From Escherichia phage EC.P1: a stretch of DNA of 64,000 bases. Position numbers and translations under genes: made by a program. This document shows, piece after piece, positions 3,230 to 4,882 of the stretch (within the stretch, counting starts at the first letter, position 1; each line of letters starts with the position of its first letter). Below the pieces are notes generated by a model. The model did no database searches, was not told the origin of the DNA, and saw nothing but the letters and a program-made list of their open reading frames with translations. The stretch is taken from sequence record PQ657772.1; one strand, given 5' to 3'.

Positions 3230-3739
3230 TTAACCACCGTACTTTGACTTATATGTTTCTAAAGATAAAGAAATGCGATTTTGCTTTTTAATTCTTTCAT
3301 CAATATCCTTTGAATTCTTAACACTTCTGTATACATCAGCTAATAAATTATAATCTTCTTTATTTGAGCTATGTAATGCCCAACCTATATCTGTTTTGAT
3401 TCGAACATATGCTTTATTTGATGTGAAATAAAAATTGAATCCGTTAGACCCATCAAAAATATCATAAGTATTTACCCAATCTCCATAAGGAAAACTCATT
3501 GGTACTGACTCATAATCAATGGTGATATCCGATAAATTTTTAGAACAGTACTTTACAAAGTGGTAAACAATCGGATCACATTTTGATAATTCGTATTTGT
3601 ATTCAATGATAGTTTTTCTATTAGTATCATTGATGGCATATTCTTTTATCAATGGACTTTTTTTGATGATAAGAGTCCATAGAAACGATTCTAATCCAGT
3701 TTCATCAACTTTTTCTTTCTTTTTGAAAAATGAAATCAT
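3230..3739 (-). CDS. hypothetical protein, tandem paralog family A (member 3)
   Basis: 169 aa; shares KSPLIKEY..NDTNRKTIIEYKYELSK motif with 3736..4257 and 4264..4830. Confidence 0.55.
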   Translation of the reverse strand: MISFFKKKEKVDETGLESFLWTLIIKKSPLIKEYAINDTNRKTIIEYKYELSKCDPIVYHFVKYCSKNLSDITIDYESVPMSFPYGDWVNTYDIFDGSNGFNFYFTSNKAYVRIKTDIGWALHSSNKEDYNLLADVYRSVKNSKDIDERIKKQNRISLSLETYKSKYGG

Positions 3740-4257
3740 TTATATAAACCCTTAATTTTCTGTCTATTATGTATATCATTTTGCTGAATTTTCAAATTAG
3801 TAAGATTGTGTCTTACACCTTCAACGCCACGCATTATTTGTAACATAATTAGTGATTCGTCATATGTTAGAACATTGCTATTATTATCGATATATACTTT
3901 CACTCCACTTTCAAGATAATCATTTTCTTTGGAGTTAAAGTTTCTAATAGCAAACTTAACGCCATTTGTTGCATCACTGAATACATATCGTTCCGCACCG
4001 TAGAATGTTTTTCCACGAAATAAACCGCCTTCTTCAAACTTCCAACGACTGGATTCATAATCATTAACGTAATCAATGATTAATGGTAGCAAAGGGTGTT
4101 TGCTCAATTTATATTTTGCTTCTAACAGAACACGACGATCTTGATCTGTATTGATGATATCTTTAAGTGTGAAACTTTTTGATATAATTTTAAAGATAAT
4201 TTCATGCCAAATTAAAGTACTGTTTTGTTTTCCAACTGGGCCAAAAAACATATTCAT
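3736..4257 (-). CDS. hypothetical protein, tandem paralog family A (member 2)
   Basis: 173 aa; KSFTLKDIINTDQDRRVLLEAKYKLSK motif; 4-nt overlap with next gene. Confidence 0.55.
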   Translation of the reverse strand: MNMFFGPVGKQNSTLIWHEIIFKIISKSFTLKDIINTDQDRRVLLEAKYKLSKHPLLPLIIDYVNDYESSRWKFEEGGLFRGKTFYGAERYVFSDATNGVKFAIRNFNSKENDYLESGVKVYIDNNSNVLTYDESLIMLQIMRGVEGVRHNLTNLKIQQNDIHNRQKIKGLYK

Positions 4258-4263
4258 TCCTCA

Positions 4264-4830
4264 TTAGTATAAATCAGTAATGTCTTTGTATGCATTAATC
4301 TGTTTTTGTTGTAATGAAAGTTCATTGAGTTTAGTTACCATTTTATCTACGCCAACACGTATATAGAAAATAATAAATGAATCTAACTTGCCTAGAGTAA
4401 TTCTTGAACTGAAAGTTGAAAGTTTTCTTGCATAAACATAAATTTCTTCTTCACTTGGTAAACGTTTCTCAATCAGCAAGTTTTCCACACCATTCGGCTC
4501 ATAATCAATCTCGAACTCTACGCCTATCACAGTATCTTGAATGATATCAGTATATGAACCACCGAAAAAAAACTCTCTTGGTTTGGTTCTCCAACGAGGA
4601 CTAAATGGGTCAGATGCGTATTCTTTTACAAATTTGTAAAAGGACATTTTACTGAGCATATACTTCATCTCAATTAGTGCTTTGCGGTCATCATCAGTTT
4701 TAAACTCTGCTTTGAGCGATGGACTTTTACACAGTAACTTAACTAAATTGTTGTACATCTTTAATGTACGTTGGTCTTTCATTTCTTGGATTTTGTGACG
4801 CTTTGGTGGTGGTAGTAAAGATTTGACCAT
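4264..4830 (-). CDS. hypothetical protein, tandem paralog family A (member 1)
   Basis: 188 aa; KSPSLKAEFKTDDDRKALIEMKYMLSK motif; ATG verified, AGGAGG RBS and strong sigma70-like promoter upstream. Confidence 0.6.
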   Translation of the reverse strand: MVKSLLPPPKRHKIQEMKDQRTLKMYNNLVKLLCKSPSLKAEFKTDDDRKALIEMKYMLSKMSFYKFVKEYASDPFSPRWRTKPREFFFGGSYTDIIQDTVIGVEFEIDYEPNGVENLLIEKRLPSEEEIYVYARKLSTFSSRITLGKLDSFIIFYIRVGVDKMVTKLNELSLQQKQINAYKDITDLY

Positions 4831-4853
4831 AATTTCCTCCTGTATTTTCTAGC

Positions 4854-4882
4854 ATTATACACATAAAAGAAAAGCCCGTCAA
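4854..4882 (-). promoter_or_regulatory. sigma70-like promoter (TTGACG-17-TATAAT) for paralog-A operon
   Basis: Minus-strand reading TTGACGggcttttcttttatgtgTATAAT, followed by AGGAGG and ATG at 4830; -35 lies inside the tail-fibre terminator hairpin. Confidence 0.45.

Follow-up and report, generated by a model that had tools for sequence, protein, structure and literature searches.

Three adjacent small genes, here named par1, par2 and par3, lie directly downstream of the tail-fibre genes of Escherichia phage EC.P1, and their position raises the question of whether they serve the fibres or form a separate transcription unit with a task of its own. We addressed this question in a stretch of 64,000 nucleotides (nt) of the phage genome (sequence record PQ657772.1), referred to below as the window. 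Positions 2800-5000 share 99.6% identity with Escherichia phage WPEC3 and 89-90% with PBECO4, 121Q, G17 and phAPEC6, values that place the window in Asteriusvirus, i.e., among the PBECO4/121Q-like, Rak2-like jumbo coliphage myoviruses of ca. 350-385 kb. All gene-like open reading frames (ORFs) of at least 100 amino acids (aa) are on the minus strand of the window. An earlier note had described the three genes as tandem paralogs under a near-consensus sigma70 promoter embedded in the terminator of the fibre operon, and had interpreted them as early genes and candidates for host takeover or anti-defence rather than as fibre chaperones. The observation was confirmed and the interpretation is partly supported. 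From the sequence comparisons presented here, it is well supported that a 70-nt terminator-promoter element divides the late-type fibre operon from a distinct host-sigma70 unit headed by the array.

In 5' to 3' direction along the minus strand, the junction between the two units runs from the fibre stop codon TAA through AAATTTT, the hairpin AAGCTCGTC-TATT-GACGGGCTT, TTCTTTTATGTG, TATAAT, GCTAGAAAATAC, the Shine-Dalgarno sequence AGGAGG and AAATT to the ATG of par1. The hairpin, located 8 nt past the stop codon, has a 9-bp stem, a 4-nt loop and a predicted energy of -13.1 kcal/mol and is followed by TTCTTTT, as expected of an intrinsic (Rho-independent) terminator; the equivalent hairpin is annotated as a terminator in the G17 record. 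The hexamers TTGACG and TATAAT and the AGGAGG were found ahead of the first paralog just as described in the earlier note, and the -35 box is indeed part of the hairpin, being made up of the two bases that end the loop and the four with which the 3' arm begins. With 11 of the 12 consensus bases and a 17-nt spacer the site has the hexamers and spacing of a sigma70 promoter, and it lies on the coding strand in intergenic DNA, at a distance of 23 nt from the ATG that includes the AGGAGG. An A/T-rich, UP-like tract is present upstream. An extended -10 element was considered and dropped, the TG being one base out of register.

The decisive support for the par1 promoter comes from its conservation across lineages. 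In each phage the junction following the last fibre gene was compared. The Asteriusvirus phages G17, UE-S1 and JNE01 have the same stem and the same promoter as the window, apart from the -10 box of JNE01, which is TATACT. The hairpin of A4 is AAGCCTGTC-TATT-GACAGGCTT with the promoter TTGACA-17-TATAAT (12/12 matches), that of Salmonella phage Munch is GAGGTTGTC-TATT-GACAGCCTC with TTGACA-17-TATTAT, that of Erwinia phage Kaldavass and Xanthomonas phage XbC2 is AAGCGGTC-ATT-GACCGCTT with TTGACC-17-TATAAT, and that of Serratia phage BF and Erwinia phage pEa50 is AGCCCCT-TGAC-AGGGGCT with TTGACA-17-TACAAT. The layout of a hairpin, TTGAC, a 17-nt spacer and a -10 box (in summary form TAnAAT) is thus shared by five lineages (Asteriusvirus, A4, Munch, Kaldavass/XbC2 and BF/pEa50) with five different stems. 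Outside the GAC of the -35 box the paired bases co-vary, the fourth pair from the loop being C-G, T-A, T-A and G-C, and the sixth C-G, C-G, G-C and G-C, across the compared stems. As the stem changes are compensatory and the hexamers and their spacing are kept, both the hairpin and the promoter are under selection. The conservation goes beyond that of the neighbouring non-coding sequence in Asteriusvirus, Munch, Eneladusvirus, Kaldavass and Mimasvirus.

Could the promoter match nevertheless be functionless, i.e., a by-product of the terminator sequence and an AT-rich spacer, with read-through or a distant promoter as the genes' only route to expression? A loose promoter scan of the AT-rich window returned 53 sites against 56.6 expected, showing no enrichment, and about half of the sites with at least 11 of 12 matches are inside ORFs, two points in favour of such an explanation. 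However, there are 17 of these stringent sites on the coding strand, where dinucleotide shuffles gave 3.35 ± 1.8 (maximum 9), and zero on the other strand, a roughly five-fold enrichment confined to the coding strand. Against a functionless match also speaks that TTGAC, the exact 17-nt spacing and the -10 box have been kept through the five stem changes, that Klebsiella phage Muenster, which has an ordinary terminator, retains a separate TTGACA-17-TAAAAT 50 nt later, and that the phages of the Eneladus/Mimas group have an extra tandem TTGACA-17 promoter 60-70 nt downstream. We consider a promoter without function highly improbable.

Two further observations concern promoters elsewhere in the window. 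At 19760-19830 (minus strand) the terminator hairpin TCCCTGTC...GGCAGGGA with its T-tract is directly followed by TTGACA-17-GAACAT, which suggests that terminator-promoter junctions recur in the EC.P1 genome. A second promoter-like class has a T[AG]GACA-type -35 box, a T[AG]TGnTATAAT extended -10 box (TGTGATATAAT) and mostly a 16-nt spacer, and its sites are mostly intergenic and about 30 nt ahead of a gene. This class may correspond in Asteriusvirus to the divergent TGAAACG class described for phage CBB (PMC5259590 supplement). Membership of the par1 promoter in this second class (T[AG]GACA-16-TGTGATATAAT) was considered and dropped for lack of fit.

The label "tail-fibre genes" for the upstream operon is reasonable, in line with the earlier note. 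The phAPEC6 ortholog of the 898-aa protein, gp323c (85% identity), has been found in virions (Table 1 of PMC7247149), and proteins of phage 121Q related to the fibre-like proteins of the window carry a tail fibre annotation; no Pfam family matched the fibre-like proteins of the window themselves. The three proteins share a C-terminal module of about 120 residues ending in ...R(P/F)STT..GS.(F/I)P.S.G.P..(T/S)GT..W, and the 195-aa protein is essentially this module only. Judged from its promoter core, ATAAATA, the fibre operon is of the late type. The full TATAAATA is present at the equivalent site in G17, phAPEC6 and Munch. Within the 64 kb, ATAAATA occurs in three copies on both strands against 39.8 ± 6.4 expected, and TATAAATA in none against 10.4 expected; the depletion looks like strong avoidance, as for a functional signal, and looks genome-wide. 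In the region upstream of par1 (4831-4900) no ATAAATA was found, the motif that a T4-type late promoter would carry within about 50 nt upstream. In G17 a second fibre cluster, located after the nucleotidyltransferase gene, is likewise preceded by ATAAATA. In the window, the corresponding junction between the nucleotidyltransferase gene and the acyl-carrier-protein-like gene (1591-1640) lacks the extra, late-promoter-led cluster of G17 and phAPEC6, which encodes a 43-aa virion protein and fibre proteins of 178 and 929 aa, and the virion fibre genes are therefore polymorphic for presence or absence.

The explanation that we favour is that the 70-nt junction (4831-4900) has a double function. As RNA, the hairpin and U-tract would end the late fibre transcript begun at the ATAAATA-type promoter (10983), and at the DNA level this sequence would provide the -35 box for the sigma70 holoenzyme of the host RNA polymerase. 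A new transcript would begin about 16 nt before par1 and run through par1-par2-par3, orf133, the nucleotidyltransferase gene and the acyl-carrier-protein-like gene, which are probably one transcript; on the minus strand no terminator was predicted from 4850 to 1. Given the good -35 and -10 boxes no phage factor would be required, so that the array would most likely be made from the start of infection, a timing that we infer from the promoter type and by analogy with T4-like regulation. The terminator would presumably shield the array largely from late transcription. The proteins belong to a small, jumbo-phage-specific family, encoded in tandem arrays of variable copy number and exchanged as a cassette, and would act inside the cell as non-structural accessory proteins on a host or nucleic-acid target, not as fibre assembly factors. 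We regard this explanation as a whole, the dual junction together with an early array of non-structural accessory genes, as probable, although with clear reserve. For CBB, three promoter classes have been proposed, i.e., an RpoD-like (early) class, a class with a divergent -35 box, and the T4-late-like ATAAATA before structural genes (PMC5259590), and in PA5oct TTGAC/TATAATA promoters are located at start sites determined by RNA-seq, the phage being dependent on the host polymerase (PMC7318152). Neither for Asteriusvirus nor for RaK2 did our literature search turn up a transcriptome; promoters are not a topic of the RaK2 paper, and the fEgEco12 paper contains nothing on the paralog genes.

The relatedness of the three adjacent proteins of 169-188 aa was borne out by pairwise comparison. 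Par1 and Par2 are 30% identical over 175 aa (E = 9e-16), while Par3 aligns with either of them at E-values of about 1e-5 over the N-terminal 60-90 aa. In PHROGs, Par1 (7e-78) and Par2 (3e-80) match phrog_18641 and Par3 (2e-52) matches phrog_7868 over the full length, with cross-matches of Par1 and Par2 to phrog_7868 and of Par3 to phrog_18641 at 1e-5 to 4e-10. Of the sequence motifs that the earlier note had listed, [NT]-D-x-[ND]-R-[KR] and E-x-K-Y-x-L-S-K are exact, whereas the first one is K-S-x-x-[LI]-K, one residue having been dropped. PHROGs keeps phrog_18641 and phrog_7868 as two separate families of unknown function; in contrast, the cross-matches, a joint profile and one shared model make them a single superfamily here, with a fixed genomic position. 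No nucleotide-level repeat is left among the three genes and the duplications are therefore old; no further copies of the family were found elsewhere in the window. In all public records par1-par3 are annotated as hypothetical proteins.

To place the family, its profile was compared exhaustively by HMMER with 1.84 billion cluster representatives; 28 proteins were returned at E <= 0.001, all of 50-209 aa and none fused to another domain. A word-indexed homology search with the paralogs found close relatives only. No fitting family was obtained for Par1-Par3 in Pfam, NCBIfam and PADLOC scans (none at E <= 0.1 in Pfam and NCBIfam), nor a consistent one in Pfam scans of 30 family members; a PADLOC match of Par1 only to DUF2290 (E = 0.0046) was judged to be noise. 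Sequence-profile searches of the PDB, run for the whole family and separately for the N-terminal domain, gave best E-values of 0.2-0.4, and a Foldseek search of the PDB with a first model (predicted local distance difference test, pLDDT, 67) gave nothing. Profile searches, a check that the earlier note had proposed, thus produced no match to tail-fibre assembly families in Pfam, NCBIfam and the PDB. Fold matches in BFVD were limited to uncharacterised proteins of large phages of Yersinia, Pseudomonas and Vibrio, and the searches revealed no characterised protein that the paralogs resemble; for known anti-defence proteins such as Acr, Ocr, Tad and Acb this holds in both sequence and fold.

An AlphaFold2 model of Par2 built from a 30-sequence alignment reached a pLDDT of 85 and a predicted template modelling score of 0.77. 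The model has helices at residues 17-25, 31-34, 38-52 and 57-65, four strands between 72 and 123, and a helix at 132-171, i.e., an N-terminal helical region holding the conserved D-x-x-R...K-Y-x-x-S, a four-strand sheet and a 40-residue C-terminal helix. No known fold matches this confident model in the libraries searched. Residues D38, R41, K48, Y49, S52, D95 and a C-terminal tyrosine (Y172) are near-invariant in the family. The proteins are basic (isoelectric point 8.6-9.3), as are their terminal helices, and have a size of about 20 kDa. Membrane or secreted proteins were considered and dropped, the sequences having no hydrophobic N-terminus, signal peptide or membrane segment, and a helix-turn-helix reading of the 'LSKHTLY' segment was dropped as it had neither profile nor fold support.

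The genes around the array follow a conserved order of fibre cluster, array, orf132/133 and RlaP-family nucleotidyltransferase, with spanins and an HNH gene later on. The array has two members in RaK2 and Muenster, three in Asteriusvirus and Munch, and up to four in metagenomic relatives (four in contig L012) and in Serratia phage BF. In BF, pEa50, Kaldavass, XbC2 and CBB, which keep the order as well, three to four family genes are interleaved with genes for a Thg1-like tRNA-His guanylyltransferase and a DNA methylase. The two large fibre proteins are 65-78% identical between the window and either UE-S1 or JNE01 and 49-55% identical with A4; for the paralogs the values are 88-90% (UE-S1), 28-35% (JNE01) and 31-38% (A4), and for the nucleotidyltransferase ca. 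83%, 74% and 87%, respectively. By these values the divergence of the array is uncoupled from that of the fibres. A sliding-window comparison with G17 displays the array (ca. 3100-4840) as an island of 87-98% nucleotide identity between flanks of 60-81%. Synonymous divergence (dS) from G17 is 0.13-0.5 for the paralogs and 1.0-2.4 for the fibres and the nucleotidyltransferase, and the paralogs have ratios of nonsynonymous to synonymous divergence (dN/dS) of 0.08-0.25. The identity island and the low dS indicate that the array was recently exchanged independently of both neighbours. By sequence criteria, the array is a functional cassette under purifying selection that exists in deeply diverged alleles.

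Several points weigh against the explanation that we favour. The word "early" is a reading of the promoter type, and read-through of the terminator could deliver late expression too. The MEME-based promoter tables for CBB, a list that is not exhaustive, omit the equivalent site (PMC5259590). The dN/dS values reflect purifying selection and carry no arms-race signal, and the near-invariant polar residues hint at a defined ligand or catalytic site. Finally, a place right after the fibre genes and a size of 170-190 aa are as expected of Tfa-type chaperones, and assembly chaperones usually leave the virion, so that absence from virions is compatible with such a role.

The last of these points would fit paralogs that are tail-fibre assembly chaperones, one for each upstream fibre gene, produced late by read-through or early from their own promoter. 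Three paralogs immediately 3' of three paralogous fibre genes, a length resembling that of Tfa and gp38-type proteins and the same position in Munch, BF, XbC2 and metagenomic contigs would all be in agreement with this. However, in every lineage checked the paralogs are cut off from the fibres by a conserved terminator and have a sigma70 promoter of their own, and no late promoter core precedes the paralogs. They match neither Caudo_TAP nor gp38 in Pfam and no solved structure. In the virion mass spectrometry of phAPEC6, the fibre proteins gp314c, gp315c and gp323c were detected and gp319c-321c were absent (PMC7247149). The number of paralogs does not track that of the fibres, as L012 has four paralogs to three fibres and Muenster, with two paralogs like RaK2, has three annotated tail-fibre genes in the 7 kb upstream. 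In Muenster, moreover, the fibres upstream of the array are not homologous to those of the window, and the array is present all the same. The fibres of JNE01 and UE-S1 are equally diverged from those of the window, while their paralogs differ widely in divergence, and in BF and CBB the Thg1-like and methylase genes lie among the array genes. The absence of a chaperone-family match and of virion detection, the non-homologous neighbouring fibres, the interleaving and the uncoupled divergence together uphold the view of the earlier note that fibre chaperones are unlikely, and we regard this role as decidedly improbable.

The neighbourhood of the array would also suit proteins that bind nucleic acids and work with the RNA-repair-type enzymes encoded downstream (the RlaP nucleotidyltransferase and, in relatives, the Thg1-like enzyme), for example as tRNA or RNA adaptors in a module for RNA repair or for protection of RNA from anticodon nucleases of the host. 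In six lineages the array is invariably linked to orf133 and the RlaP nucleotidyltransferase, the ORFs overlap or abut in a manner that implies translational coupling (the start of par3 overlaps the stop of par2, ATGA), and the Thg1-like gene is interleaved in the Eneladus/Mimas phages. The basic N-terminal and C-terminal helices and the invariant D/R/K/Y/S residues, suggestive of a defined binding site, point in the same direction. On the other hand, no RNA- or DNA-binding domain was detectable by sequence or fold, the linkage may merely reflect a shared early operon, and the exchange of the cassette independently of the nucleotidyltransferase argues against tight co-adaptation. Partnership with these enzymes is, in our opinion, a reasonable though unlikely alternative.

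Within the favoured explanation, i.e., an early array of non-structural accessory genes, the context, namely the early-type promoter, the exchange as a cassette and the neighbouring genes, makes a counter-defence or host-takeover role plausible, if less likely than not, and we put it forward as a tentative proposal. In a more specific and rather unlikely version, the paralogs would be a new-fold family of Rak2-like jumbo phages, made at once on infection from a host-type promoter, and each of its diversified copies would have its own host factor to neutralise or redirect (e.g., an RNA-targeting nuclease of the immune system or an immune signalling molecule), possibly in concert with the RlaP nucleotidyltransferase linked to the array. 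In that case the array would serve in counter-defence as an exchangeable cassette, insulated from late expression by the terminator-promoter.

The coordinates of the array, the junction and the other features of the window are collected in Table 1. The 151-aa product of the acyl-carrier-protein-like gene resembles TIGR00517 in its C-terminal 60 residues (1.2e-5), a weak match under the curated cutoff, and has an N-terminal extension of about 90 residues without known relatives. Further downstream, an overlapping gene pair corresponds by homology to the genes annotated as i-spanin and o-spanin in Muenster, Munch and RaK2; the N-terminus of the second product, with LISGC, resembles a lipobox. 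Scans of the region for Rfam families, tRNAs and repeats gave empty or trivial results.

Table 1. Positions of the array, its control signals and other features in the window.
Feature	Position	Strand	Description
par1	4264-4830	minus	188 aa; = 121Q gp502, phAPEC6 gp321c; phrog_18641
par2	3736-4257	minus	173 aa; = 121Q gp503, phAPEC6 gp320c; phrog_18641
par3	3230-3739	minus	169 aa; = 121Q gp504, phAPEC6 gp319c; phrog_7868
Intrinsic terminator of fibre operon	4862-4893	minus	hairpin 4893-4872 and T-rich tail
sigma70-type promoter	4854-4882	minus	-35 TTGACG 4882-4877, 17-nt spacer, -10 TATAAT 4859-4854
Shine-Dalgarno AGGAGG	4836-4841	minus	5 nt before par1 ATG; conserved in cross-phage alignment
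Fibre operon	4901-10943	minus	three paralogous fibre-like genes; phrog_3573/26864
Fibre-like gene	8247-10943	minus	898 aa
Fibre-like gene	7647-8234	minus	195 aa
Fibre-like gene	4901-7630	minus	909 aa
Late-type promoter core ATAAATA	10977-10983	minus	34 nt before ATG of 898-aa fibre gene, just past a terminator
ATAAATA copy	19922-19928	minus	
ATAAATA copy	25460-25466	plus	
orf133	2826-3227	minus	in tight block 1164-3227 downstream of par3
RlaP-family nucleotidyltransferase	1591-2829	minus	PF10127, 4.5e-17
Acyl-carrier-protein-like gene	1164-1619	minus	151 aa
Spanin-like gene pair	425-739 and 736-1110	minus	
Second-class promoter-like site	62129-62101	minus	-35 less clear
Second-class promoter-like site	53017-52990	minus	
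Second-class promoter-like site	51327-51287	minus	-35 less clear
Second-class promoter-like site	29122-29095	minus	
Second-class promoter-like site	25592-25565	minus	

Most jumbo-phage genes are without known function, and the array, with its promoter, three paralogs and link to orf133 and the nucleotidyltransferase, is a compact module with clear edges among them. As it has a confident model, recognisable alleles and a variable copy number, it can be deleted, swapped and screened. The terminator-promoter is a clean natural 70-nt element that would separate two temporal classes and could be used as a regulatory part in phage engineering. If the family turned out to act in counter-defence, it would add a new fold to the counter-defence repertoire; if the paralogs were chaperones, they would be a case of fibre helpers transcribed before the proteins that they serve. 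For the present, the array represents an uncharacterised early-type accessory family, of a sort common in large phages.

Among the known systems, the early units of T4-like and Rak2-like phages share with the array the canonical -35 and -10 boxes, the 17-nt spacer and the A/T-rich upstream tract, for which the host polymerase suffices, and the tightly packed small genes of unknown function that follow the promoter. In contrast to them, the array lies between late structural operons, outside the main early region, and has a -35 box that forms part of the terminator hairpin ahead of it. XRCC4/SAS-6/PAXX-type head-plus-stalk proteins are also among the closest known systems. With the fibre chaperones lambda Tfa, Mu U and P2 G (Caudo_TAP) and T4 gp38 and gp57A, the array has in common its place right after the fibre genes and a product size of about 170-190 aa. 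Unlike Tfa/Caudo_TAP, gp38 and gp57A, the paralogs have no sequence or fold similarity to these proteins, are neither co-transcribed nor co-varying with the fibres as far as the terminator, their own sigma70 promoter, their copy number and the divergence values indicate, and are interleaved with nucleic-acid enzymes in relatives. The array is a real, well-delimited accessory module of a known general kind.

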